Shown piece after piece: positions 11,182-63,516 of a stretch of 64,000 nt of DNA (position 1 is its first letter; each line of letters opens with the position of its first letter). Origin of the DNA: Escherichia coli O157 typing phage 4. Made by a program: the position numbers and the translations under genes. A model generated the notes under the pieces. It did not search any database and was not told the origin of the DNA. It worked only from the letters and a program-made list of their open reading frames with translations. Location of the stretch: the sequence record KP869102. One strand, written 5' to 3'.

Positions 11182-11258
11182 TGGTCTCCACGGAGTGATT
11201 CGAACACTCGACCTCCTGATCCCAAATCAGGCGCTCTACCAAGCTGAGCTACGCGGAG
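11182..11258 (-). tRNA. tRNA-Pro (anticodon TGG)
   Basis: Cloverleaf folded by hand: C1-G72 acceptor, T-arm GAGTG-TTCGAAT-CACTC, anticodon loop TTTGGGA, CCA encoded. Confidence 0.75.
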
Positions 11259-11269
11259 TATTCATTATT

Positions 11270-11344
11270 TGGTGGCCCTGGGTGGAATTGAACCACCGTC
11301 TGGCGATTATGAGTCGCTTGCTTGAACCTTCCAGCTACAGGGCC
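11270..11344 (-). tRNA. tRNA-Met/Ile2 (anticodon CAT)
   Basis: Acceptor GGCCCTG/CAGGGCC, T-arm GGTGG-TTCAATT-CCACC, anticodon loop CTCATAA, CCA encoded. Confidence 0.7.
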
Positions 11345-11345
11345 A

Positions 11346-11421
11346 TGGTGCTGATGGCAGGACTTGAACCTGCAACCTATTGATTACAAATCAATTGCAC
11401 TACCAATTGTGCTACATCAGC
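11346..11421 (-). tRNA. tRNA-Thr (anticodon TGT)
   Basis: Perfect acceptor GCTGATG/CATCAGC, T-loop TTCAAGT, anticodon loop TTTGTAA, CCA encoded. Confidence 0.75.
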
Positions 11422-11426
11422 AAAAA

Positions 11427-11517
11427 GGTGCTAGGTGATGGAGTCGAACCACCCGAATCGCAATGATAACAGATTTACAGTCTGCCCCGCTACCCCTACG
11501 GAATTAACTCACCTAAA
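11427..11517 (-). tRNA. tRNA-Tyr-like (anticodon GTA), long variable arm; possibly aberrant
   Basis: Anticodon arm GCAGA-CTGTAAA-TCTGT, T-arm GGTGG-TTCGACT-CCATC, variable hairpin; acceptor stem pairs imperfectly. Confidence 0.45.
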
Positions 11518-11643
11518 TACTAATATTTAAATTCTTTTTAAAATAGCTAGTGTTCTCACCACTAACTATGAGGTATCGGTAAAGTGGTTACCGCCACTTG
11601 CCGAAGATTTACTCTGCTAAAGTAAGCTACATTAAAAAGAACT

Positions 11644-11718
11644 TGGCACCCCGTACTGGACTCGAACCAGTGTCAACGGCTTAGAAGGCCGCTGCTTTAT
11701 CCACTAAGCTAACAGGGC
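11644..11718 (-). tRNA. tRNA-Arg (anticodon TCT)
   Basis: Acceptor with two G-U pairs, T-arm ACTGG-TTCGAGT-CCAGT, anticodon loop CTTCTAA, CCA encoded. Confidence 0.7.
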
Positions 11719-14589: not shown

Positions 14590-14636
14590 ATCTCCTGATT
14601 CTCCTTGTGTGGCAATTTTCTTTAAAATAGCAGGGA

Positions 14637-15191
14637 TTACTCCCCGCTGTCAATAGCAAAACTCATTGCAATACGGTATGCTTCTTCTAATGGTAAGAGT
14701 CTCCCCCACACATCCCAACCGACATCAAGCTGCCTGCCAAACAACTGTTGTGTGGTTCCGTGAGCATGACCGAACAGTTGGACTGATCCATGAGGCTTTC
14801 TGTTCCACTTTGCAAACTGGTAATGGCTCATACAGATCAAATTCTTGTTGTGGCGAAGCTCGTAATAATCTACAACCTCGTGATAGAACTCTTTCATAAT
14901 TCTGACAGTCGTCCTTGTGTCATGGTTGCCACGAACAAGAATAATATGTCCGTTCAACATATTTAGAATATCCGGGAGTAAGTTGTTGATATTCTTATCA
15001 TTAGTGCACGCAATATCTCCCAAGTGGAACACAGTGTCTGCAGGTGACACAACAGAGTTCCACTCGGCGATGATTCCTGCATTCATACTGTCAAGATTGT
15101 GATCATACTGAGATCTGTGTTTTTGACATGAATCAAACTCCATGACCCGCTGGTGGAGAAAGTGTGTGTCGCTTGTTACAAAGTATTTCAT
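14637..15191 (-). CDS. calcineurin-like metallophosphoesterase
   Basis: Motifs DTHF, GDIAC, GNHD; start trimmed to ATG at 15191 with GAGGA RBS. Confidence 0.7.
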   Translation of the reverse strand: MKYFVTSDTHFLHQRVMEFDSCQKHRSQYDHNLDSMNAGIIAEWNSVVSPADTVFHLGDIACTNDKNINNLLPDILNMLNGHIILVRGNHDTRTTVRIMKEFYHEVVDYYELRHNKNLICMSHYQFAKWNRKPHGSVQLFGHAHGTTQQLFGRQLDVGWDVWGRLLPLEEAYRIAMSFAIDSGE

Positions 15192-15198
15192 ACATTCC

Positions 15199-15609
15199 TC
15201 ATTTAAGTTTAATGCAGTTTTTAAGCTGGCGTTCCATACGATCCACAACCCTGTCTGGAACATCATGAATGCTTTTATTACCGTGGCGGTTTTCAACCAC
15301 GATCACGGTATAACTATACCCATGACTGATTGCCATGTCAACATATTCCTGCACATGTTTTTCTTTTGTAAACGTATTACTTACCACGATACGGTCGTAT
15401 CCCATACGCATCATATCTTCTACGTTATCTTTGCACCATTTTGCTGCGAGTGTTACTTTACTTGCATCCCAGTTGTAATTGCCGTCATCGTCATACCAGA
15501 ACATGTCGTTCTCAAAATGTGGATACAGACCTTCTAAAGATAGCGCATTTGCCAGTGTTGATTTGCCAGACCCTGGCAGACCACGCACGATATATAGCAT
15601 TTTAGACAT
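15199..15609 (-). CDS. P-loop kinase (polynucleotide kinase-like)
   Basis: Walker A GLPGSGKST near N-terminus; start at ATG 15609 with GGAGGA RBS. Confidence 0.6.
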   Translation of the reverse strand: MSKMLYIVRGLPGSGKSTLANALSLEGLYPHFENDMFWYDDDGNYNWDASKVTLAAKWCKDNVEDMMRMGYDRIVVSNTFTKEKHVQEYVDMAISHGYSYTVIVVENRHGNKSIHDVPDRVVDRMERQLKNCIKLK

Positions 15610-15709
15610 AGCAATCCTCCGTTTTAATTTTAATGATAGTATACCTAACTGTTTTGTTAATTTCAAGTGTTGACACTAGGTTATTTGTGTGGCAGGATAG
15701 ACTGACAAA

Positions 15710-16645
15710 ATGACAAATGAGGAACGTATGATGAAGTATTTTAATGCAGACGATCTAGTTGACAAAGGTCTTGTAACCAGCAGATATTACCCAGATCTTG
15801 GATTAAAGATTTATAAATATGCCAGAAAAGTATTTTACAACAATTTATGGCATTTGTCCCCTCGTTTGCTGGAGTGCCGAGGCATTGTTGTCGGTAATGA
15901 AGGAAATGTTGTGGCATGGCCCTTCACAAAAGTGTTTAACTTGGGAGAAAATCACACCAACCTGCCTGACAATAAGCTTGTGACGGCGGTAGAGAAAAAG
16001 AACGGATTCCTCGGTGTGGTGTCATCTCATAAAGGTGAACTATTGTTCTCAACAACCGGATCTCTTGATTCCCCATATTGTAACCTCGCAAAGGAAACCA
16101 TCCGGGAGCAATGTGGTAATTTAGATCTTATCAAGAAGGTTATGGGCAATGAAAACATGACATTCATGTTTGAAATTTGTCACCCTTCAGATCCGCATAT
16201 TGTTCAGGAAGATCATGGCGCATATTTGATAGGTTGCAGATATAATGATTCTGGAATAATGCTACCAGAAGCAGCTTTAGATGGGATTGCCAAATACCTT
16301 GGCGCAAAACGTCCTCACACTGTGCGTGAAATTCCGTTCAGCTATGCAAAAGAATTGGCTGCAGAAACAAGAGGTGAAGGGTATATGATTCGTAAGCCTT
16401 ACTACCCTTATGATCTGCAGCTGAAGATCAAGTCTCCATACTATCTGGCACGGAAGGCCGTAATGAGGGGTAAAGCTTGGAAGATTTGGGATGATGATAT
16501 CTTTAAACGTGTTGACGAAGAGTTTTACGGCATGGTAAACTTCATTCGTAGCAATTACACAGAAGATGTGTGGAACTGCCTACTGGAGCAGGAACGCAGG
16601 GAGATACTCGACCACTATTTCCACAACGAGGACTATATGCAATGA
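15710..16645 (+). CDS. putative RNA ligase (nucleotidyltransferase superfamily)
   Basis: Lysine motif VEKKNGF (KxNG) in 311-aa protein; divergent from flanking kinase/phosphoesterase. Confidence 0.5.
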   Translation: MTNEERMMKYFNADDLVDKGLVTSRYYPDLGLKIYKYARKVFYNNLWHLSPRLLECRGIVVGNEGNVVAWPFTKVFNLGENHTNLPDNKLVTAVEKKNGFLGVVSSHKGELLFSTTGSLDSPYCNLAKETIREQCGNLDLIKKVMGNENMTFMFEICHPSDPHIVQEDHGAYLIGCRYNDSGIMLPEAALDGIAKYLGAKRPHTVREIPFSYAKELAAETRGEGYMIRKPYYPYDLQLKIKSPYYLARKAVMRGKAWKIWDDDIFKRVDEEFYGMVNFIRSNYTEDVWNCLLEQERREILDHYFHNEDYMQ

Positions 16646-16992
16646 AGAAGTTGATTGTGTGGCTGGATGATTTGAGAGATCCGTCAAATTATGGACTCCC
16701 AGACGCTGTTTGGCTGAAGAATTCCTCCGAGTTTATGGATTTTATTAACGATAAGGGAAAGCTCTACAGACGCGTTTCTGAGTGGCATATGGACAACGAC
16801 CTAGGAGAAGTATTCGAAGGATATGATTGCCTATCCATGTTGGAGGAAAAATTTGTATTCGGTAAGCCTCCCGTGGTTGACAACGTGAAGATTTTCGTAC
16901 ATACTTCTAATCCATCAGCGGCTCGTAAATTCATGCTTGCAGCTGACTCGTTTAAAAAGTTTGGAATAGAGATTAAACAAAACATCTACTGA
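16642..16992 (+). CDS. hypothetical protein
   Basis: ATGA overlap with ligase stop; 116 aa. Confidence 0.4.
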   Translation: MKKLIVWLDDLRDPSNYGLPDAVWLKNSSEFMDFINDKGKLYRRVSEWHMDNDLGEVFEGYDCLSMLEEKFVFGKPPVVDNVKIFVHTSNPSAARKFMLAADSFKKFGIEIKQNIY

Positions 16993-17000
16993 GGACACTT

Positions 17001-17762
17001 ATGCGACGACTGATTATTATCTCCGGTGCTGGTTTGAGCGCTGAATCTGGTATTCCCACTTTCCGATCTGGTAGCACTGCAATGTGGGAGAATTTCAGCA
17101 TCGATGAGGTGTGCAACATCCACACCTTTGCCAAGAACTACTATAAGGTGCATGACTTTTACAATGCACGTCGCGTAGCTCTGGGCAGTGTTGATCCTAA
17201 CCTTGCACATCTTCGGATCGCTGAGTGGTATTCCCGCTGGTCTGGTCGTGTGATCAACCTTACCACCAATGTAGATGATTTGCTGGAGCGTGCTGGTGTA
17301 AAACATGAAGATATTTTACATGTCCACGGGTATTTGCCTGAAATCACCTACGAAGATGCTGAAGGTAATGATGTAATTAAAAATATCGGATACACGGAGG
17401 TAGATACAGGCAAGTATACCTGGGTTAAGCCCAATGTAGTGTTCTTCGGTGAGGTTGCTCCTAAGTATACAGACATGTATGACCTGTTGACATCTCTCAC
17501 AAGCAATGATATGGTGATCCTGGTAGGTTGTTCTAACACAGTTATTAATTTTAACTGGGAATTGTTTCCTGCTACTTGTAAAGGCACAAAACTGCTGATT
17601 GTAAACAAGTATGATTCGCAGAGTGCAGATGGAAGTGGCATTTCACGTAGCGACCTTTATCAATATGAGGATCGCGGGATCCCTGTATGGTTTAACGGTG
17701 CTGTTGACGCTTTCTCTGATAAAGTATTTATTGAAACTGTAGAAAACTTTATGGAACTTTAA
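17001..17762 (+). CDS. Sir2-family NAD-dependent deacetylase / ADP-ribosyltransferase
   Basis: Sirtuin motifs GAGLSAESGIPTFR, NxDxL-like TTNVDDL and HG. Confidence 0.7.
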   Translation: MRRLIIISGAGLSAESGIPTFRSGSTAMWENFSIDEVCNIHTFAKNYYKVHDFYNARRVALGSVDPNLAHLRIAEWYSRWSGRVINLTTNVDDLLERAGVKHEDILHVHGYLPEITYEDAEGNDVIKNIGYTEVDTGKYTWVKPNVVFFGEVAPKYTDMYDLLTSLTSNDMVILVGCSNTVINFNWELFPATCKGTKLLIVNKYDSQSADGSGISRSDLYQYEDRGIPVWFNGAVDAFSDKVFIETVENFMEL

Positions 17763-17775
17763 AAGGAGACCTTTA

Positions 17776-18489
17776 ATGCTGAATACTAAACTGATCGACA
17801 ACCTGGAAAAACTGTCTCAGCCTGAAAACTACCTTTGGTCTGCCAACTGGGTGGAAAACTGGAACCGTGTGGCAGCTAAGGTGAAAAAATCATACACACC
17901 ATTCGAATTACAGCTTAGCTTCATTGAGGAAGAGTTCAATGAAGTTTTGGAAGAGCTGGAGAAAGGTGATGGTGGAGATCACTTGCTAAAAGAGGCCTGC
18001 GATCTTCATGTTGTCACAAGTTATGCCGCTTATCTTGTTAATGACAATCACGAAAAGTGGTCAAACCTGTTTGATAATCCACGAGGTATTAAGTTCAAGA
18101 TTGGTGAGTTCTATGATACACTGATCGCTGCGAAAAACACCTCTAAGCAAAGAGCGTCTGCTTACCGCTTAGCAGAGTTGTCAACAGCTTTGCTGTTCCA
18201 GCTTCGCGGCGATGTGTGCGGGATGATGCGTAAGGTTCTCAAATCGAATGACAGCAAGTTTGCACGGGTCAACCATCTACGGTATTCACACGGTGCCAGT
18301 GCAGATATGCCTGCTGAACAACTCATCGAGTTGGAGATTAAAGATCTTGAGCGACGCTTTGATGGTCGATATGAAGGTTTTGTTGCTAAGGAAGAATTCT
18401 ACAACGGTAATAAAGTTATCATATTCCTTGACAGTAAAGGTAAGATCATGAAGCCTTCAAGCTTCAAGGATGTAACAGAGTATATTTAA
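17776..18489 (+). CDS. putative MazG-like nucleotide pyrophosphohydrolase
   Basis: EEEFNEVLEELE...EACDL resembles the MazG EExxE motif; weak. Confidence 0.35.
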   Translation: MLNTKLIDNLEKLSQPENYLWSANWVENWNRVAAKVKKSYTPFELQLSFIEEEFNEVLEELEKGDGGDHLLKEACDLHVVTSYAAYLVNDNHEKWSNLFDNPRGIKFKIGEFYDTLIAAKNTSKQRASAYRLAELSTALLFQLRGDVCGMMRKVLKSNDSKFARVNHLRYSHGASADMPAEQLIELEIKDLERRFDGRYEGFVAKEEFYNGNKVIIFLDSKGKIMKPSSFKDVTEYI

Positions 18490-18522
18490 CAACATAGCCG
18501 GGATCACCCGGCTTTACTTGTT

Positions 18523-18861
18523 GTGGAAAGTATGCAAGTGAGGCAGATAGTTATGTACAAGCACTCTAGAGATCTTGAAAACGATGCTGTGTTTGGGGAT
18601 CAGATGAAAGAGTTGGTTAAACTCATAGGCAGGATAGAGGATAAGTTTGACACTAAGATCTACATCGACAGCAAAGTATTCAACCACAAAATATGGACAA
18701 ATCTGTGTGTTGGACTACATGGAGATAAAGATGTTGTAAATTTAGTTGTAATTAGGTTCATAGTGTGGCAGAATAAAACTATAAATTATTACGATCCACA
18801 CCTGCTTGTTTACCCGATAAAAGACCTATTAGATAAGGAGGACTGCAATGCCGTTATTTAA
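18523..18861 (+). CDS. hypothetical protein
   Basis: 112-aa ORF. Confidence 0.4.
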   Translation: MESMQVRQIVMYKHSRDLENDAVFGDQMKELVKLIGRIEDKFDTKIYIDSKVFNHKIWTNLCVGLHGDKDVVNLVVIRFIVWQNKTINYYDPHLLVYPIKDLLDKEDCNAVI

Positions 18862-19117
18862 TCTTGCTAAACCTGTAGAAGCACACCAGTTTGACGGAAG
18901 CTCTTCATCAGTATCTGATCTGCAACGGTGGATTGATACAGGTGTGTTTACATCGTCACCTGTTCGGACCAGAGATCTTCGTCGTATGTGTGAGCTTGTA
19001 GAGCCGTTTGGTAACCTAGTCTTGTACCAGGGTGATTGGCTTGTTGATTTTATGGGGGACTGGTTGGTAATGAGTAAAGAAGAGATGTTTAAAATTTTTA
19101 AGGAAGAGGTAGAGTAA
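18848..19117 (+). CDS. hypothetical protein
   Basis: 89-aa ORF overlapping neighbours by a few nt. Confidence 0.4.
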   Translation: MPLFNLAKPVEAHQFDGSSSSVSDLQRWIDTGVFTSSPVRTRDLRRMCELVEPFGNLVLYQGDWLVDFMGDWLVMSKEEMFKIFKEEVE

Positions 19118-20400
19118 TGCATCAAATCAAAACAACACTGTACGCACTGAACAAAGATGGCAGCTACCAACAGTGGAAAGTATTCACGGATGGTGATAAG
19201 GTTATCGTAGAGTTTGGCAAGCTTGATGGTAAACTGCAATACAAAGAGACGATCTGCACACCTAAGAACGTAGGTCGTGCCAACGAGACTACAGCTGAGC
19301 AACAGGCCGAGCTTGAGGCTATCAGTAAGTGGGAAAAACAAGTCCGTCTGGGGTATGTTGAAAACATGGAAGATTGCGAGCAGGGTGTTGACCTTTTACC
19401 CATGCTGGTGCATGACTATCTGAAGCGTGGCAAGGCACTTAAATTACCTTGCTGGATCTTGCGTAAGTTAGATGGCCTTCGTCTGCTTGTTGTTTTCCAA
19501 AATGGTGAGCCTAAATTTATTTCCCGTGGTAATAAGTCCTACCCTATTCAAGGAAAGCTTTTAGAGCAACTTCGTTCTTTCCATTCTACCACTGGGATTA
19601 AACAACTTGATGGGGAACTATACATTCATGGTCTTCCTTTGCAGAAAATAGTGTCTCTTGCTAAACGGTGGCGCACACAGGAAGAGATTCAGGCCGAGAT
19701 CGATAAAGACTATGAGGCAGATAAAAAACGCCGTCATGCCGCAATTAAGGCAGGCTTATCAACATACAAAAACTTCAACAAGGTAGATATTCCTGTCGAT
19801 GTTGATCCTGTTCGTGATGATTTGCGTTACGGTGGGTACTGTAGCTACGATCTGGAGTATCACATTTTTGATATTCCTAGCGACAAGGTGTGGTGGGATC
19901 CAGAAACAGAGTCTGGACGCTGCAAGGATCTTATGGATGCAGAGGATACCGTTACCACTCTGATGCTTGACCATATCAAGGTTGTTGACGCAGAGCTTGC
20001 GTACACAGTTGATCATTGCGAAGAATCTGTTGGTATATTCATGTCCGAAGGATATGAAGGTACCATTATGCGTAACTTCTGTGGTAAATATGAGTACGGT
20101 CAGCGAACATCTGAAGCATTGAAATGGAAAAAGTTCAACGACGCAGAGGTGAAAGTTATTGACGTTGAGAAAGATAAGAATGATGAAGGTGTTCTTATCT
20201 GTGTTGACAAGGAAGGTATTGTTGTTAAAATGAAGATGAAAGGTACGCACGAGGAGCGTAGCTATGACAGAATGCAGGAAATGATCGGCAAGTTTGTCAC
20301 CTTCAAATATCAAGCAAGGACAGAAGACAACAACTACCAATTCCCTGTCGGTATCTGCGTCCGAAATGTTAACCCAGACACTTGGGAGGTGCTGGAATAA
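19117..20400 (+). CDS. ATP-dependent DNA ligase
   Basis: Adenylation motif I RKLDGLR (KxDG) and EGTIMR motif; 427 aa. Confidence 0.75.
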   Translation: MHQIKTTLYALNKDGSYQQWKVFTDGDKVIVEFGKLDGKLQYKETICTPKNVGRANETTAEQQAELEAISKWEKQVRLGYVENMEDCEQGVDLLPMLVHDYLKRGKALKLPCWILRKLDGLRLLVVFQNGEPKFISRGNKSYPIQGKLLEQLRSFHSTTGIKQLDGELYIHGLPLQKIVSLAKRWRTQEEIQAEIDKDYEADKKRRHAAIKAGLSTYKNFNKVDIPVDVDPVRDDLRYGGYCSYDLEYHIFDIPSDKVWWDPETESGRCKDLMDAEDTVTTLMLDHIKVVDAELAYTVDHCEESVGIFMSEGYEGTIMRNFCGKYEYGQRTSEALKWKKFNDAEVKVIDVEKDKNDEGVLICVDKEGIVVKMKMKGTHEERSYDRMQEMIGKFVTFKYQARTEDNNYQFPVGICVRNVNPDTWEVLE

Positions 20401-52793: not shown

Positions 52794-52893
52794 NNNNNNN
52801 NNNNNNNNNNNNNNNNNNNNNNNNNNNNNNNNNNNNNNNNNNNNNNNNNNNNNNNNNNNNNNNNNNNNNNNNNNNNNNNNNNNNNNNNNNNNN
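52794..52893. other. assembly gap (run of N)
   Basis: 100 consecutive N. Confidence 0.99.
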
Positions 52894-53531: not shown

Positions 53532-53633
53532 CCNNNNNNNNNNNNNNNNNNNNNNNNNNNNNNNNNNNNNNNNNNNNNNNNNNNNNNNNNNNNNNNNNNN
53601 NNNNNNNNNNNNNNNNNNNNNNNNNNNNNNNNN
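53532..53633. other. assembly gap (run of N)
   Basis: About 100 consecutive N. Confidence 0.99.
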
Positions 53634-56362: not shown

Positions 56363-56544
56363 TTTGTACCTCCCCTTCAATTGTTACCTATCCTATAGCA
56401 TAGGCCCACCAGGTTTACAAGCCTTCATTCTCTCCTGCCTGGTCAGTTAGGTCCTGCCAGGCTGGCCCCGCCAGGTTGCAGCGGTTAGCGCATCAGGTTA
56501 GAAAAATTTTTTGAAAAGTGTTGACAGCGGCCCCGCCAGGTGGC
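56231..56544. repeat. iteron-like array of CYGCCAGGT motifs (about 7 copies)
   Basis: cctgccaggtt, cccaccaggtt, cctgcctggtc, cctgccaggct, ccccgccaggtt, catcaggtt, ccccgccaggtg read directly. Confidence 0.55.
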
Positions 56545-56894
56545 ACAATATACCTATCGAAAGGACGGCAGGCACCGGTGACGGGGGAGGCAACCACCGG
56601 GGATGGACGCTGCATAAAATGAGAACGGTTATCATTATCATTTAAAAATTTATGCAAAAAATCCTTGCTTTCTTTGTCCTGTGTGATACTATAATAACAA
56701 GCCGGGGCAACAGGGGCCGGGAGACAATCACCGGGCCTGCCCGTTATTCTGCAAACGAGAATGATTATCATTCAAAATTCTAAATGAGAACTCCTCGCAT
56801 TTAATAAATTTAATTAGCATGCTAATTACCCTCCGTAACAATTTCCTATAAAACAGTATCCCATAAAATATTTCCATATAGAAATTTTAAAAAT

Positions 56895-57069
56895 CCATTT
56901 CTGAAAACGAAAAATCGATTTCGTCCCCAAAAATTTCAGGTCGAGATCCGGAACGATTTCCAGAAAATCCGATTTAGAAAACGAAAAACAGATCGAGTAC
57001 TGAGAAATTTATCGAGAAAAATTTTCAGAAAATTCAATCTTTGAAACGAAAAACAGATCGAGTACCTGG
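56895..57069. repeat. AT-rich direct repeats (unit ending GAAAACGAAAAACAGATCGAGTAC), two full copies and one partial
   Basis: Near-identical ~44-bp copies at ~56957-57000 and ~57023-57066, partial copy ~56895-56925. Confidence 0.6.
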
Positions 57070-57377
57070 AAAGCTGCACTGCAACTTCAAGATAGTGGTT
57101 AGATTATTACCATAAAAGGTCAAGGGTAAGTGGAGGAAGTTCTAGTAGAAGGATGTGAGCATGTGTGGGAAATCTATAATGGTGGCCTGGAATATGGTGC
57201 AAACGATAGGATGAGTTATTCAGCTTGTCGCGCCTACTCTGAAAAATCCATTTTAGTTTTCGATCCATTTTCTGATTTTCTAAGAATTTTAAAATATCCA
57301 GCCCGGTGAAATATCAAAAGGAGGAAATCCATTTTAGAAATCCCCCTTATACTTGATATGCCAGGAATTTTCAAGTA

Positions 57378-57707
57378 TCAGTTGTCTTTGTTTTTAGGTT
57401 TGTACATGCGCAGAGGTATGGTCTTTGTAACATTCCATTTCCTCAACCCTTCCCAGCTCCAGTTGTGGGCGTGGTATCCGGTTATGCATGCACTACTGGA
57501 GTGATCGTAAGCATAAGAGAACGCTAAGCGCACCAGGTGGGGCCAGTCCTTCCATGGTTGTGGACCGTAAGCTTTTCTCCAACACCGACACAAACTAAAT
57601 GTCTCAAGGATAGGAAGGATAACAAACCCATACACTGTCACCAAAATAGTCAGTGCAATGATTGTCAGGAACACATACCCTGCAGTTGAAATGATGATCT
57701 CTGTCAT
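57378..57707 (-). CDS. membrane protein
   Basis: N-terminal TM helices; 109 aa. Confidence 0.4.
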   Translation of the reverse strand: MTEIIISTAGYVFLTIIALTILVTVYGFVILPILETFSLCRCWRKAYGPQPWKDWPHLVRLAFSYAYDHSSSACITGYHAHNWSWEGLRKWNVTKTIPLRMYKPKNKDN

Positions 57708-57907
57708 TTGTCGTCCCCTTTCTTACGGATATAGATGTGAGAACCTGCCTGTATATAAATTTCTCGACCATCTTCTGCGAAGATGTGGAATACACGGTCA
57801 CCTTCGTACTCAATACGAGATATCTTCATAATGGTCTTTCCACCTGGGATACGGATCTCGTCCCCCACAGCGATGTTCCATGCAGATTTAAGCTTAAACA
57901 TCTGCAC
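57704..57907 (-). CDS. hypothetical protein
   Basis: 67 aa, overlapping stop/start. Confidence 0.4.
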   Translation of the reverse strand: MQMFKLKSAWNIAVGDEIRIPGGKTIMKISRIEYEGDRVFHIFAEDGREIYIQAGSHIYIRKKGDDK

Positions 57908-58139
57908 CCTCCTTTGGGAACTTGAACTCTGGCATAGCCATATACGCTACAACAGGGTTGTGATCAAAGTAGAACTGACCGTTAATTATCCCGGTTTTAC
58001 TCACATAGTTACCAGATCCTGCAAGAACAACCTCGCAAGCTCCGAAATCTACATTGCCATCCTCATCAGCCATGGCTACGATATACTTTCCTAGAGGCAT
58101 GTTTTTAACGCCGTCTACAAATGTCCACCCTTTGTTCAT
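57894..58139 (-). CDS. hypothetical protein
   Basis: 81 aa. Confidence 0.4.
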   Translation of the reverse strand: MNKGWTFVDGVKNMPLGKYIVAMADEDGNVDFGACEVVLAGSGNYVSKTGIINGQFYFDHNPVVAYMAMPEFKFPKEGADV

Positions 58140-58159
58140 ACTTTATCTCCTGCACTTTC

Positions 58160-58492
58160 TTAAGGTAACCAGTAAACAATCTCGCCTTTCAGCTTCATGT
58201 CGTTTCCAACATAAATTTCCCAGCCATCCATCTTAGCAACTGTAGGCCCAAAGTCATCCGCACCCCTTACCTCTTTCCAGGCTCCGTAGTCAGGTTGCCA
58301 GATATAGAATCCACCTTCTTTGTCCCATGCTCCGTACACTACGTTTAACAGGTTTCCCATTGCAACAATGGTGGGCCGTGGGAATAATACATCTACAGAT
58401 GCGCCACAATTTCGGGTATCTTTTAAGTTGCAATCCCAAAAGATGTCTGCCAGTGTGGCGGCGATAGCTTTACGTCTTTCCAATGTTACCAT
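58160..58492 (-). CDS. hypothetical protein
   Basis: 110 aa. Confidence 0.4.
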   Translation of the reverse strand: MVTLERRKAIAATLADIFWDCNLKDTRNCGASVDVLFPRPTIVAMGNLLNVVYGAWDKEGGFYIWQPDYGAWKEVRGADDFGPTVAKMDGWEIYVGNDMKLKGEIVYWLP

Positions 58493-58502
58493 GGCACGAT
58501 AC

Positions 58503-58694
58503 TCACTTGTTGTTAATAAGTTCTAAAACTTTCTGTCTTACTTTGTCAAGGTCTGTTGATTCAAAAACTGTGCGATATCCCCAACTTTGCCCATAGGAGT
58601 GACTGCAATCTCCGTAGCACCATTGCTCAATTTGATAGTATTCAAGGAAGGGGTGCTGTCTAACTATGATGCCATCCCGGTTAAAAATTACCAT
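58503..58694 (-). CDS. hypothetical protein
   Basis: 63 aa. Confidence 0.35.
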   Translation of the reverse strand: MVIFNRDGIIVRQHPFLEYYQIEQWCYGDCSHSYGQSWGYRTVFESTDLDKVRQKVLELINNK

Positions 58695-58757
58695 AATACG
58701 TCGCTCTCTGTTAGTCTGTGCGTATATTATACACTGTAGTTTTCAGATGTCAATCTT

Positions 58758-59009
58758 TTACAGGTTACTCCAGTATACTCGGCATTTACATTTCGGGCAA
58801 TGAGGCTCTTTTATGTAATAACCATCAGTCTTTGGAACACTTTTTGGTGCAGTTTTAAGATTGTACCGAGTAAAACACCGGAAGCAGGTTACCTCTCCAA
58901 CCTGTTGATCGTTTATCCACTCGCCAGAGTAAAGCTCTCTCTTGTTTCTCATAATTCTCTCCCAAATCCTCTGCAATCTTATACCAAAATCTCCAGCCAG
59001 AAAGCACAC
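58758..59009 (-). CDS. zinc-ribbon protein
   Basis: CFRCFTRYNL...HCPKCKC Cys pairs. Confidence 0.4.
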   Translation of the reverse strand: MCFLAGDFGIRLQRIWERIMRNKRELYSGEWINDQQVGEVTCFRCFTRYNLKTAPKSVPKTDGYYIKEPHCPKCKCRVYWSNL

Positions 59010-59202
59010 GGGAACACTTTGATGATTGAATCTTTACCTGGTTCAGCAGTTCTTTTTCCGTAGGGTAGGTAGAAATACCCTCCTGCAGATTCGAACACAG
59101 CCCCTTCGGTTGTATCTATCACAGCCAGAATTAAGATTTTAGTCTCCATAGTGCTCCCTCTCTCAATCGTTGTGGTGACTATACCATCTCAAAAACCCGC
59201 TG

Positions 59203-59760
59203 TCAACACTTTTTGTACTCCACCACGATAATATTCATATCAAAAGTGGCAAGGTTAATAACGTCCTCTACGTGCTCCCACTTCAAACCGCCTATGCCGC
59301 ACCCGATCTTAGGGATGTAGAATGGTAAAGTCGATCCACTGAATACCTCATTGACTAGCTCAAAGCCTTTCAGGATTGAGAAATATTCAGCATTAGGTCC
59401 TGGGTAGAACTGAGTATACAGATTGATTCCGTAGACAATACCTCTCGGAGATAAGTGCTCCCATCGGGAGAACGCACCCAGTTTACTTAGGCAACCGTGT
59501 CTGGTCTCTTTGTCAGCTGCCAATGCTTGAGGGAACTCACGGGCAATCTGTTTTGCTATCCCCTTGCCCATTGTGTGGAAGCAGTTACAACCGTGGATCA
59601 GGTGACCAGCACCGCTCTTAAAAAGGGAGATTAAATCTCCCTCTACAGTATCAATAATCACGGTATGCCAGCTCCTCTTCCGCAATTTCAAAAAACTCAT
59701 CCCAACCTTGTGGCATATTTGAGTTGCCGAAGTGGCTTTCATAGTAAAGGTTCTCACCAC
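59203..59760 (-). CDS. macro-domain protein (ADP-ribose binding/processing)
   Basis: HLIHGCNCFHTMGKGIAKQIAREFP resembles the macro-domain core; true start probably an internal ATG. Confidence 0.55.
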   Translation of the reverse strand: MVRTFTMKATSATQICHKVGMSFLKLRKRSWHTVIIDTVEGDLISLFKSGAGHLIHGCNCFHTMGKGIAKQIAREFPQALAADKETRHGCLSKLGAFSRWEHLSPRGIVYGINLYTQFYPGPNAEYFSILKGFELVNEVFSGSTLPFYIPKIGCGIGGLKWEHVEDVINLATFDMNIIVVEYKKC

Positions 59761-60076
59761 TTGGGAGATAGAAATCTGTTACCTCGTAGAATCCACAATC
59801 GTCGCACTCGCCTTCTTCAAACTTGGCCTCAACCTTAATACCGAGGAAGGTGAAAAGTTTATGAATATCTTCAGTTTCGAACTCCCAGTGAATGTTGTTT
59901 TCCGCATCGGTGTAGAACTGGATCAGCAGACCATTGTCCAGTTTACCAAAATACTCTGTGAAGTAACTTCCTTCCCAGAAATCTCTATGACAAATAATAT
60001 CCATGCGTTTGCCCATAATAATGGTGTGAGCGTTTTGGGCATCGTCGCGAATCAGTTTTGGCATTTCATAGATCAT
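59651..60076 (-). CDS. hypothetical acidic protein
   Basis: 141-aa ORF; 3-prime end overlaps macro-domain ORF. Confidence 0.4.
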   Translation of the reverse strand: MIYEMPKLIRDDAQNAHTIIMGKRMDIICHRDFWEGSYFTEYFGKLDNGLLIQFYTDAENNIHWEFETEDIHKLFTFLGIKVEAKFEEGECDDCGFYEVTDFYLPSGENLYYESHFGNSNMPQGWDEFFEIAEEELAYRDY

Positions 60077-60144
60077 CTTAGTTCTCCGGGTTCAACAGGT
60101 GGTGGTGCTACAGGAAGATCATAAAACATAGCTATCACAGTCTC

Positions 60145-60342
60145 TTACACAGGAATTGCTTCAAACAGGCCGTTATCTATACCGTCCTTCAGATAGAGAT
60201 TATATTCTATATCGGTATCTGTATAAAGGGCAGCATCCAGCATTCTATCTGTGAGTCCATCCATTGGGTGGAGAAACCACCACCCACGCCAGTCAAAGTA
60301 ACAGCCTGGTGCATCTTCTCTTACACGGATTCGATAAATCAT
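60145..60342 (-). CDS. hypothetical protein (gene A; second copy starts at 61334)
   Basis: 65 aa; identical N-terminus seen again at 61285-61334. Confidence 0.4.
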   Translation of the reverse strand: MIYRIRVREDAPGCYFDWRGWWFLHPMDGLTDRMLDAALYTDTDIEYNLYLKDGIDNGLFEAIPV

Positions 60343-60438
60343 GGGCAGTGGCCTCCTGTTAGTTATACATCCCAGTTTTCTTCGTTCATCGCGTCCTCCC
60401 GTTATATGAAGTTATAATTGCACACCTTTCAACCTGTG

Positions 60439-60917: not shown

Positions 60918-61184
60918 TTAAAAAGGGATGTCATCATCAAAGGAGTACTGTGCTGGATTCTGATCCATTGGGTCATCTTCCTCATCATTTACAGGAGGAG
61001 CGTCTACAGTGTTTTGCTGTGGAGCTGCTTCCTGTTTGGTAGCCTGAGGTTCTTGATGGTCAGTTGACCCAGCACCGTTCTTGATCCAATCGTACAACGG
61101 CTCAGCCAGATTAGTCAAGACATCTTTTGCTTCTGCAGTAATTGCCGCTGCAAAATCATCAACTTTCGTTTTCTTGTCAATACG
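60918..61184 (-). CDS. SSB-like protein, C-terminal fragment ending DDDIPF (5-prime part lost in gap)
   Basis: Gly/Pro/Gln-rich linker then acidic tip ...PAQYSFDDDIPF-stop. Confidence 0.4.
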   Translation of the reverse strand, partial: RIDKKTKVDDFAAAITAEAKDVLTNLAEPLYDWIKNGAGSTDHQEPQATKQEAAPQQNTVDAPPVNDEEDDPMDQNPAQYSFDDDIPF

Positions 61185-61284
61185 NNNNNNNNNNNNNNNN
61201 NNNNNNNNNNNNNNNNNNNNNNNNNNNNNNNNNNNNNNNNNNNNNNNNNNNNNNNNNNNNNNNNNNNNNNNNNNNNNNNNNNNN
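61185..61284. other. assembly gap (run of N)
   Basis: 100 consecutive N. Confidence 0.99.
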
Positions 61285-61430
61285 TCAAAGTAACAGCCTG
61301 GTGCATCTTCTCTTACACGGATTCGATAAATCATGGGCAGTGGCCTCCTGTTAGTTATACATCCCAGTTTTCTTCGTTCATCGCGTCCTCCCGTTCTATG
61401 AAGTTATAATTGCACACCTTTCCACCTGTG

Positions 61431-63027: not shown

Positions 63028-63127
63028 NNNNNNNNNNNNNNNNNNNNNNNNNNNNNNNNNNNNNNNNNNNNNNNNNNNNNNNNNNNNNNNNNNNNNNNNN
63101 NNNNNNNNNNNNNNNNNNNNNNNNNNN
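63028..63127. other. assembly gap (run of N)
   Basis: 100 consecutive N. Confidence 0.99.
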
Positions 63128-63416: not shown

Positions 63417-63516
63417 NNNNNNNNNNNNNNNNNNNNNNNNNNNNNNNNNNNNNNNNNNNNNNNNNNNNNNNNNNNNNNNNNNNNNNNNNNNNNNNNNNNN
63501 NNNNNNNNNNNNNNNN
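63417..63516. other. assembly gap (run of N)
   Basis: 100 consecutive N. Confidence 0.99.

Follow-up and report, generated by a model that had tools for sequence, protein, structure and literature searches.

The subject of this analysis is gp078, a sirtuin-fold, NAD+-dependent enzyme encoded within 64,000 nucleotides of Escherichia coli O157 typing phage 4 (sequence record KP869102; this whole stretch is called the window), together with the RNA end-processing genes that surround it and a macro-domain protein, gp194, encoded elsewhere in the window. Gene numbers (gp074–gp082 and gp194) follow the record annotation of Escherichia phage JES2013 (NC_022323/KC690136), a 136.9-kb V5-like myovirus of the genus Vequintavirus, with which the window is 100% identical over the stretches compared (14600–20400 and 58700–60400). 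A sequence-only reading of the window had described a complete sirtuin-type protein among nucleotide-metabolism genes, and had suggested that it acts with the macro-domain protein on NAD or protein ADP-ribosylation, possibly as a counter to NAD-depleting host defences.

The sirtuin gp078

The first point to note is that gp078 is a complete, bona fide sirtuin-fold protein with intact NAD-binding and catalytic residues. Its score against the Pfam SIR2 model (PF02146) is 98.2 bits (E 7e-28, cut-off 24), over profile positions 1–178 of 180, and it matches PHROG 2162 ‘Sir2’ with an E value of 1.6e-108. A sequence search of the PDB matched 91 sirtuin sequences, with E. coli CobB at the top (E 3e-21). 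An AlphaFold2 model calculated from a 29-member alignment of the clade was of good quality (pLDDT 89.2, pTM 0.88), and the top 50 PDB matches found for it by Foldseek were all sirtuins, CobB being first (E 1e-18, TM 0.75–0.84), followed by Sir2Af1 and SIRT5. The sirtuin reported earlier at this position is thus borne out, with its coordinates exact. The NC_022323 annotation already labels the gene Sir2, and the database annotations of its relatives are all NAD-dependent deacetylase.

The catalytic and NAD-binding residues, namely GAGLSAESGIPTFR, N90 and D92 (in TTNVDD) and H109 (in HVHG), align with those of CobB and SIRT5, including G9-A10-G11, F21-R22 and H109-G110. Across the 29 clade members GAG, F21, R22, Y54, R57, N90, D92, H109, E151, S178 and N202 are invariant, so that no Sir2 catalytic residue is missing on alignment. 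Like CobB, SIRT5 and Sir2Af1, gp078 has the Rossmann and small-domain fold, the GAGxSxxSGIPxFR motif, a Y-x-x-R pair, the N and D of the QNID motif, the catalytic HG and an FGE loop. The Y-x-x-R pair, Y54 and R57 (FYNARR), aligns with FYNARR in CobB and FYHYRR in SIRT5, and both it and the FGE loop (FFGE) are retained and invariant in the clade.

The differences from these proteins are equally consistent across the clade. Identity to CobB, SIRT5 and Sir2Af1 is 26–28% in structural alignments. The paired zinc-binding cysteines (CxxC...CxxC) are lacking from gp078 segment 110–145, which aligns with the cysteine-containing segment of CobB, and no conserved small-domain cysteine is found in any of the 29 members. 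In the model, a cysteine-free beta-hairpin (strands 110–118 and 124–128) occupies the place of the zinc ribbon. An invariant Thr replaces the Gln of the QNID motif. The proline of the GTSxxVxP peptide-binding (beta-staple) loop is general among deacylases; where CobB has GTSGHVYPA, gp078 has GCSNTVINF, the proline being replaced by N, or by D in 3 of the 29 members. gp078 also falls well below the NCBIfam CobB equivalog cut-offs (NF040867, NF001755 and others; 104 against 320 and 93 against 318) and below that of the CobB subfamily model (122.6 against 243). The gp078 clade is large, phage-specific and has lost the zinc ribbon. It is essentially phage-borne: the protein collection contains 949 homologues, of which the 120 best are mostly encoded on contigs as long as a phage genome.

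NADase activity is common among prokaryotic SIR2 domains, and one could imagine gp078 as a free NADase which depletes host NAD+, for host shut-off or for superinfection exclusion. A relative described below adjoins a NAMPT gene, which would recycle nicotinamide. A scan of gp078 against the defence-type SIR2 models (ThsA, DSR1/2, SIR2-HerA and pAgo-associated) returned no PADLOC family at E ≤ 1e-3, and a defence-type SIR2 NADase effector was therefore rejected as the primary reading. In addition, no residue of the deacylase-type catalytic set is missing from gp078, whose nearest relative is CobB and not ThsA or DSR, and a lytic phage equipped with large nucleotide-metabolism modules would itself be harmed by the depletion of NAD. 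A free NADase is thus barely credible.

The gp078 operon and its conservation in phages

The sirtuin gene is the third of a tight operon that encodes, in order, an Rnl1-type RNA ligase, a cREC (cyclic-phosphate-processing receiver-like domain) protein, the sirtuin and a MazG-like protein (Table 1). The stop of the ligase gene overlaps the cREC start codon (ATGCAATGAAG), only 8 nt separate the cREC stop from the sirtuin ATG, which is preceded by a Shine-Dalgarno-like GAGGA, and the MazG-like gene begins 13 nt past the sirtuin stop. Motif I of the ligase reads EKKNGF in the translation, and the kinase gp075 also matches PHROG 505 ‘polynucleotide kinase’ (E 9e-10). The description of the sirtuin as lying among nucleotide-metabolism genes was imprecise, since its near neighbours are concerned with RNA and DNA end repair and ligation; genes for ribonucleotide reductase and thymidylate synthase begin about 11 kb downstream.

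Table 1. Coordinates of gp078, its neighbours and gp194 in the window
Feature	Position	Strand	Basis
Four phage tRNA genes (Pro-UGG, Met-CAU, Thr-UGU, Arg-UCU)	11182..11718	-	ARAGORN; 3 kb upstream of cluster
Calcineurin-type metallophosphoesterase, gp074	14637..15191	-	Metallophos 29.7 bits, Metallophos_2 27.9 bits; PHROG 547 E 2.2e-52
P-loop polynucleotide-kinase-like kinase, gp075	15199..15609	-	AAA_33 42 bits; PHROG 2071 E 2e-58
Divergent intergenic region between kinase and ligase genes, 121 bp	15610..15730	.	Promoter-like hexamers
Rnl1-type (T4 RnlA-like) RNA ligase, gp076	15731..16645	+	RNA_lig_T4_1 55.9 bits; PHROG 562 E 2.7e-66
cREC protein, gp077	16642..16992	+	cREC_REC 54.1 bits, cut-off 27
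Sir2, sirtuin-fold NAD+-dependent enzyme, gp078	17001..17762	+	ATG-to-stop open reading frame, 253 aa
MazG-like nucleotide pyrophosphohydrolase, gp079	17776..18489	+	PHROG 671 E 5.4e-22; no Pfam match
GC-rich hairpin, 7 bp stem, 6 GC pairs	18496..18513	+	Terminator-like scan, consensus match only
Small conserved open reading frames, gp080 and gp081	18532..18861 and 18848..19117	+	No Pfam match
ATP-dependent DNA ligase, gp082	19117..20400	+	DNA_ligase_A_M and DNA_ligase_OB_2; PHROG 114 E 2.7e-83
Macro-domain protein gp194, 152 aa	59203..59661	-	Annotated CDS; homologue of T4 Tk.4/AdfM

Several minus-strand sigma-70-like matches (15666–15599), which are consensus matches only, are found in the region between the divergent kinase and ligase genes. 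The hairpin directly past the MazG-like stop is the probable end of the operon; the number of terminator-like hairpins in the region is not above the shuffled expectation. Homologues of gp080 and gp081 adjoin the cluster (RNA ligase, Sir2, MazG and DNA ligase) in 10–11 related loci with differing gene orders, and these two proteins may be uncharacterised parts of the RNA-repair module. The four phage tRNAs are possible repair substrates.

Members of the sirtuin clade occur in 1010 phage records, dominated by T5-like, V5-like and Mydo-like phages, and are also carried by PVP-SE1-like phages, Phapecoctavirus, and KVP40-like and other jumbo phages. In T5 itself the homologue is T5.102 (57% identity). 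Linkage was assessed in 76 IMG/VR loci encoding a clade member, whose open reading frames were searched with iterated profiles built from the window neighbours. The ligase (Rnl1), kinase, phosphoesterase, MazG-like and DNA ligase genes each lie beside Sir2 in 11–15 of the 76 loci and cREC in 8, the MazG-like gene accompanying Sir2 in 13. At least three gene orders are represented: the divergent V5 type, a colinear Mydo/PVP-SE1 type and a type found in genomes of 146–153 kb.

A different partner is present in 30 further loci, where a HAD_SAK_2 ‘Swiss-army-knife RNA repair’ phosphatase is encoded downstream of Sir2 on the same strand and the genes of the Rnl1 set are absent. The two genes are at most about 1.3 kb apart in 28 T5-like loci, and 2.4–5.4 kb apart in two contigs (of 86 and 381 kb). 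The T5 phosphatase, T5.105, scores 73 bits against the HAD_SAK_2 Pfam family, and a T5 HAD_SAK_2 tblastn query has no match in the window. Thus, the association of Sir2 with RNA repair is strong and recurrent, without being universal.

Two minor points concern the T5 locus. T5.105 (locus L079, T5 record 56,447–58,927) is annotated ‘Sir2 (NAD-dependent deacetylase)’, whereas it is really the HAD_SAK_2 RNA-repair phosphatase. It is followed by two DUF7415 genes, and such genes also accompany Sir2 in 31 related loci.

RNA 2'-phosphate removal as a candidate function

The literature and GenBank annotation already cover the gene, the clade and neighbourhood to which it belongs, and the leading hypothesis for its function. 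Iyer, Burroughs, Anantharaman and Aravind (Viruses 2022, PMC9503650, section 3.7.3) described the same neighbourhood for phage V5 and predicted a KptA-like role for the sirtuin, namely 2'-phosphate removal in the repair of RNAs cut by metal-independent nucleases; HAD-linked and jumbo-phage types of sirtuin neighbourhood are described there as well. Their V5/Mydo type (type 2; Escherichia phage V5 and Proteus phage Mydo) has the same set of sirtuin, T4-like RNA ligase, cREC, nucleotide kinase and MazG-superfamily pyrophosphatase, joined in some cases by a calcineurin-like phosphoesterase. All five sirtuin partners lie inside 14637..18489 in the window, where the sirtuin likewise has no adjacent macro gene, the nearest being 41.4 kb away. 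There is no substantive difference, and the window is another member of the described group, for which the function is a computational prediction. The finding itself therefore adds nothing beyond the existing annotation and the published comparative-genomics prediction. What would be new is a demonstration of the predicted RNA-directed sirtuin activity, which is directly testable.

The interpretation that we favour, tentatively and with a confidence just short of even, is that the cluster repairs RNA breaks and that the sirtuin would remove RNA 2'-phosphate in the manner of Tpt1/KptA, the macro-domain protein being a separate, AdfM-type protein. After heal-and-seal repair of the fungal and plant type, the junction still carries a 2'-phosphate, and its removal by Tpt1/KptA requires NAD+. 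The activities of that type are represented in the cluster by a candidate cyclic phosphodiesterase (cREC or the phosphoesterase), a 5' kinase and the Rnl1-family ligase. The targets would most plausibly be tRNAs cut by host anticodon nucleases or by other metal-independent RNases. The 2',3'-cyclic phosphate at the break would be opened by cREC and/or the phosphoesterase, the kinase would add a phosphate to the 5'-OH, Rnl1 would seal the break, and the sirtuin would then spend NAD+ to strip the residual 2'-phosphate, as Tpt1/KptA does.

This chemistry is compatible with what sirtuins do. In deacylation, a substrate oxygen attacks C1' of NAD+ and nicotinamide leaves, after which the His-activated ribose 2'-OH attacks the centre linked to the substrate, giving a 1',2'-cyclic species. 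The proposed phosphate chemistry fits a sirtuin because its steps would run in parallel, an oxygen of the phosphate taking the part of the acyl carbonyl oxygen. The phosphate oxygen would attack C1'' of NAD+, nicotinamide would depart, and the His-activated 2''-OH would attack phosphorus. The products would be RNA with a 2'-OH and ADP-ribose 1'',2''-cyclic phosphate, and the latter could then be degraded by cREC, the phosphoesterase or the MazG-like enzyme. As a speculation, the Tyr54/Arg57 pair, which binds succinyl or malonyl carboxylates in SIRT5 and CobB, could hold the phosphate instead. A non-peptide substrate would be in keeping with the loss of the zinc module and with the changes in the peptide-binding loop.

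In its strictest form, gp078 would be a true RNA 2'-phosphotransferase, or would transfer ADP-ribose to an RNA-end phosphate, and would perform the final step of a yeast-like tRNA-rescue pathway with cREC, the kinase and Rnl1, the ADP-ribose-phosphate by-product possibly being cleared by the Poa1p/DarG-like macro-domain protein. We regard this as possible but doubtful. The reaction envisaged is that of Tpt1/KptA (E. coli KptA, and the enzyme that completes tRNA splicing in fungi and plants), and the genomic company is similar, with a kinase, a candidate cyclic phosphodiesterase and an Rnl1-family ligase, as in yeast Trl1. The folds are unrelated, since Tpt1/KptA belongs to the ADP-ribosyltransferase superfamily and gp078 is a SIR2 protein (the only Pfam family matched at E ≤ 0.01, with no Tpt1/KptA fold among the top structural matches, which are all sirtuins), so the resemblance would be functional only. 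The other obvious comparison is with T4 PseT (Pnkp) and RnlA, which repair tRNA against the anticodon nuclease PrrC. In both systems, a phage kinase, a phosphatase and an Rnl1-type ligase are available for healing and sealing cleaved tRNA, and RNA ligase 1 is among the known anti-defence proteins in the EVADES compilation. T4 differs in having a HAD 3'-phosphatase fused to the kinase and in lacking a sirtuin and cREC, whereas the phosphatase in the window is of the calcineurin type and is encoded by a separate gene.

Several observations weigh against a role in 2'-phosphate removal. The searchable literature holds no biochemical or genetic evidence for any member of the clade, and searches for experiments on phage or viral sirtuins, and for Tpt1 together with sirtuins, led to the 2022 comparative-genomics paper only. 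The roles of cREC and of the MazG-like protein are predictions, and the phosphoesterase of the cluster might fully remove the cyclic phosphate, leaving no 2'-phosphate as substrate. In 30 of the 76 related loci, no RNA-repair neighbour was recognisable with the profile seeds and, in sampled cases, with Pfam. The cases sampled were Phapecoctavirus tuntematon, KVP40 and three other large contigs. Within 6 kb on either side of Sir2, P. tuntematon has no recognisable RNA-repair neighbour, and among the genes sampled in KVP40, Pfam showed nothing near Sir2 of relevance to RNA repair. Nor did Pfam show the 2H, Nudix, cREC or PIN partners of the jumbo type (PMC9503650) in the genes sampled in KVP40 (L064) and in the contigs L071, L066 and L063; Serratia phage BF, the published example of that type, lies outside the neighbourhood sample. 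The sampled jumbo neighbourhoods instead contain DUF7275, GyrB, a resolvase, UvdE, NAMPT, endonuclease VII, NrdD and a nucleoside 2-deoxyribosyltransferase-like protein. The occurrence of NAMPT (L063) and of the deoxyribosyltransferase-like gene (L066) among the loci without an RNA-repair partner also counts against the proposal. Finally, T5 positions 1–63,232 (52% of the genome) encode Sir2 and the HAD phosphatase and no RNA ligase homologue, cREC and kinase homologues likewise being absent there.

The two contigs just mentioned are of interest in themselves. In L063 (IMG/VR contig 3300033696_000004, 119.9 kb), NAMPT lies directly upstream of the Sir2 homologue (L063:4057-5490 and L063:5959-6702), a pairing that would recycle the nicotinamide produced by the sirtuin. 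In L066, a 279-kb jumbo phage contig, the deoxyribosyltransferase-like gene (L066:6713-7195; 116 bits against Pfam Nuc_deoxyri_tr2) is right behind Sir2 (L066:6001-6708), in an NAD or nucleoside context unlike the RNA-repair one.

Genetic data from a related phage also bear on the proposal. In Bas54 (Vequintavirinae), the genes for the sirtuin, cREC, ligase, kinase and phosphoesterase all tolerated transposon insertions well in the hosts tested (10.1101/2025.11.20.689424, supplement), which counts against a role in RNA repair. The sirtuin gene has 50 TA sites, with mean counts of ∼406 and 443 in the two conditions compared (log2FC 0.13, p 0.86). The Bas54 cluster has the same gene order as that of the window and essentially equal gene lengths, the adjacent gene of cREC size being taken as cREC. 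Any role must therefore be conditional. The RNA-repair module is dispensable in the Bas54 hosts tested, as expected of a conditional counter-defence function.

The main rival is that gp078 is a CobB/SIRT5-like lysine deacylase that resets the acylation of host or phage proteins, possibly including the active-site lysines of the neighbouring ligases. It is the main rival because nothing that gp078 has kept in its sequence excludes a deacylase. Indeed, the retained catalytic His109, the Y54-x-x-R57 pair and the FFGE loop are equally compatible with an ordinary class-III lysine deacylase, N90 and D92 are also invariant, and the nearest relatives in both sequence and structure, CobB, Sir2Af1 and SIRT5, point the same way, as do the database annotations. 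These observations accordingly count against the RNA-repair interpretation too. Against a deacylase stand the low scores on the CobB equivalog models, the clade-wide loss of the zinc ribbon and the V-I-N/D loop. Moreover, unlike the genes of CobB, SIRT5 and Sir2Af1, that of gp078 is part of an RNA-repair operon, and a general deacylase would have no need of a linkage to RNA end-processing enzymes that recurs with varied gene orders and partner families. A deacylase is, on this evidence, somewhat unlikely.

It is also conceivable that gp078 is a protein or nucleic-acid ADP-ribosyltransferase used in host takeover, in the manner of SirTM or, functionally, of T4 Alt, ModA and ModB. ADP-ribose is transferred by SirTM and by SIRT4/6, the option has been discussed for viral sirtuins (PMC9503650), and the changed substrate loop and lost zinc module would suit a substrate other than an acyl-lysine peptide. 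However, an adjacent macro gene is the defining feature of SirTM-type systems and gp078 has none beside it, a target cannot be inferred, and the RNA-repair context indicates that RNA is repaired and not modified. Such a transferase seems improbable.

Were RNA 2'-phosphate removal by the gp078 clade to be demonstrated, RNA would become a new class of sirtuin substrate, and a second, convergent solution to the Tpt1 reaction would have been found. It would also explain a gene present in ∼1000 sequenced phages, the model phage T5 included, and would widen the arms race between phages and tRNA-cleaving defences beyond the PseT/RnlA paradigm of T4.

The macro-domain protein gp194 and its relation to the sirtuin

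The macro-domain protein had been placed at 59203..59760 by the sequence-only reading. The domain assignment stands, while the 5' end does not. That interval is a mechanical open reading frame with a GTG start, which overlaps the upstream gene (59651..60076) and begins 99 nt too far upstream; the annotation, the overlap and the alignment with T4 Tk.4 all place the true start at 59661. From there the N-terminus, MIIDTVEGD, aligns residue for residue with the start of Tk.4, MIVKYIKGD. The score against Pfam Macro (PF01661) is 28.3 bits, above the gathering threshold of 22, so that this domain, like SIR2, is confirmed by its profile; the best stretch covers profile positions 1–32 only. T4 Tk.4 scores similarly (27.7 bits, positions 2–113).

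BLASTP aligns gp194 with Tk.4 over its full length (39% identity and 63% positives over 153 aa, E 4e-40). Both are small stand-alone proteins, and they share the motifs HGCNCFHTMG and NLYTQF. gp194 also matches the DarG macro domain (PADLOC E 1.1e-13; PDB 5m3i, E 4e-7) and positions 3–139 of the 338 of NCBIfam antitoxin_DarG (E 1.6e-12; 47.4 bits against a cut-off of 250). DarG has a C-terminal DarT-binding domain (it is ∼330–340 aa long), which gp194, at 152 aa, lacks, and the Lys of ‘FPTK’ in DarG aligns with the Gln of ‘LYTQ’ in gp194 and Tk.4. Further matches are to yeast Poa1p, an ADP-ribose-1''-phosphate phosphatase (PDB, E 2e-6), and, weakly, to TARG1. A single-sequence AlphaFold2 model of gp194 was unusable (pLDDT 30.9). 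On the far side of the replication and nucleotide-metabolism module, the gene forms part of a leftward block of small early-type genes. Two genes downstream of it, 58758..59009(-) encodes a ‘Phage zinc binding domain’ protein (Phage_zn_bind_2, 79.6 bits).

According to a 2025 preprint, T4 tk.4 was the single hit of a DarTG2 transposon screen and its clean knockout sensitises T4 to DarTG2; its authors gave the gene the name adfM. DarTG2 ADP-ribosylates DNA thymidines, and Tk.4/AdfM is reported to protect against it (bioRxiv 10.1101/2025.11.20.689424). DarTG2 also strongly restricts T5 (PMC11825919). It is T4 tk.4 alone for which the screen and the knockout have shown anti-DarTG2 activity, and for gp194 the activity is predicted by homology. 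gp194 is most likely an AdfM-type DNA ADP-ribosyl glycohydrolase, shielding the phage from DarT2 independently of the sirtuin; it is in any case probably a counter-defence enzyme acting on ADP-ribose. Since a Poa1p-like activity is plausible for this class of macro domain, a secondary role in clearing ADP-ribose-phosphate by-products is possible. V5-like phages are common candidates for phage therapy, and a conditional RNA-repair module together with a probable anti-DarTG2 macrodomain would help to predict host range.

The proposal that Sir2 and the macro-domain protein cooperate can now be considered. Sir2 would make O-acyl-ADP-ribose, or would ADP-ribosylate a target, and the macro-domain protein would clear the product or reverse the modification, countering NAD-depleting defences. 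Both proteins belong to NAD/ADP-ribose chemistry, sirtuin products and ADP-ribose-1''-phosphate are among the substrates that macro domains can hydrolyse, the match to Poa1p is in keeping with this, and both genes are found in V5-like genomes and in one Mydo-like genome (Raoultella phage Ro1). Sirtuin and macro genes are likewise combined in the SirTM-macro operons (class M sirtuins of Staphylococcus and Streptococcus, with an actinophage version described in PMC9503650). In those operons, however, the genes are adjacent and co-transcribed, whereas here the sirtuin is CobB-like and the two genes lie on opposite strands, belong to different transcription modules and are separated by 41–50 kb that include the replication/nucleotide-metabolism module and the block of small early-type genes. 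A partnership is therefore unsupported by genome organisation.

The distributions of the two genes lead to the same conclusion. They were judged from 60 evenly spaced matches each, out of the 1010 records with Sir2 and the 2722 phage records with a gp194 homologue, the latter dominated by T4-like phages. No T5-like record was among the 60 macro matches and no T4-like record (∼168 kb) among the 60 Sir2 matches; other genomes of Mydo or PVP-SE1 size are listed for one gene or the other, and T5 1–63,232 has Sir2 and no macro homologue. The two distributions are thus largely disjoint. Since, in addition, ∼41% of myoviruses encode a macro domain (PMC9503650), the joint presence of the two genes in one genome does not support a partnership. 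Nor is one supported when the T4 homologue of gp194 already has a reported, unrelated role against DarTG2 and the conserved partners of the sirtuin are RNA-repair enzymes. The suggestion that the two proteins jointly manipulate NAD or protein ADP-ribosylation is therefore not supported.

The related suggestion, that NAD-depleting defences are countered, fares no better, because a sirtuin consumes NAD+ while the known phage answers to NAD depletion, NARP1–3, rebuild it (PMC13464706). With the L063 NAMPT as tblastn query, no NAMPT homologue was found in the window, and the nucleoside-deoxyribosyltransferase-like query gave a chance-level match only (E 0.63). No NAD-salvage gene is present in the JES2013 record annotation of 55.7–123 kb. 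The EVADES text, which covers 268 anti-defence proteins, names no phage sirtuin as an anti-defence protein, its only mentions of Sir2 being of host defence systems. Overall, cooperation between Sir2 and the macro-domain protein against NAD depletion appears very improbable.

The distance between the two genes depends on how the window was assembled. Runs of exactly 100 N are present at 52794–52893, 53534–53633, 61185–61284, 63028–63127 and 63417–63516, and the window is therefore a gapped scaffold. The first gap omits ∼8.9 kb of the finished JES2013 genome (record 102,950–111,850), including a non-coding region of roughly 2 kb that separates divergent transcription units. As a result, the 41.4 kb that separate Sir2 from the macro gene in the window become 50.3 kb in the complete genome. 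Around 60.8–62.8 kb, the pieces of the window are in a different order from the JES2013 record. Nearby, the open reading frames 60145..60342(-) and 60918..61334(-) share identical first 16 residues, MIYRIRVREDAPGCYF, and the second continues directly into an N run; the shared start reflects either a short duplication that is real or an artefact of the scaffolding.

A final observation concerns the database records matched by the window. GenBank MG065635–MG065690, labelled ‘Campylobacter phage’ with C. jejuni as host, were among the matches (18 records in the nucleotide search and 25 in the protein search), and those listed are 96–99% identical to the window over the regions tested. The C. jejuni host label of these records is probably wrong.

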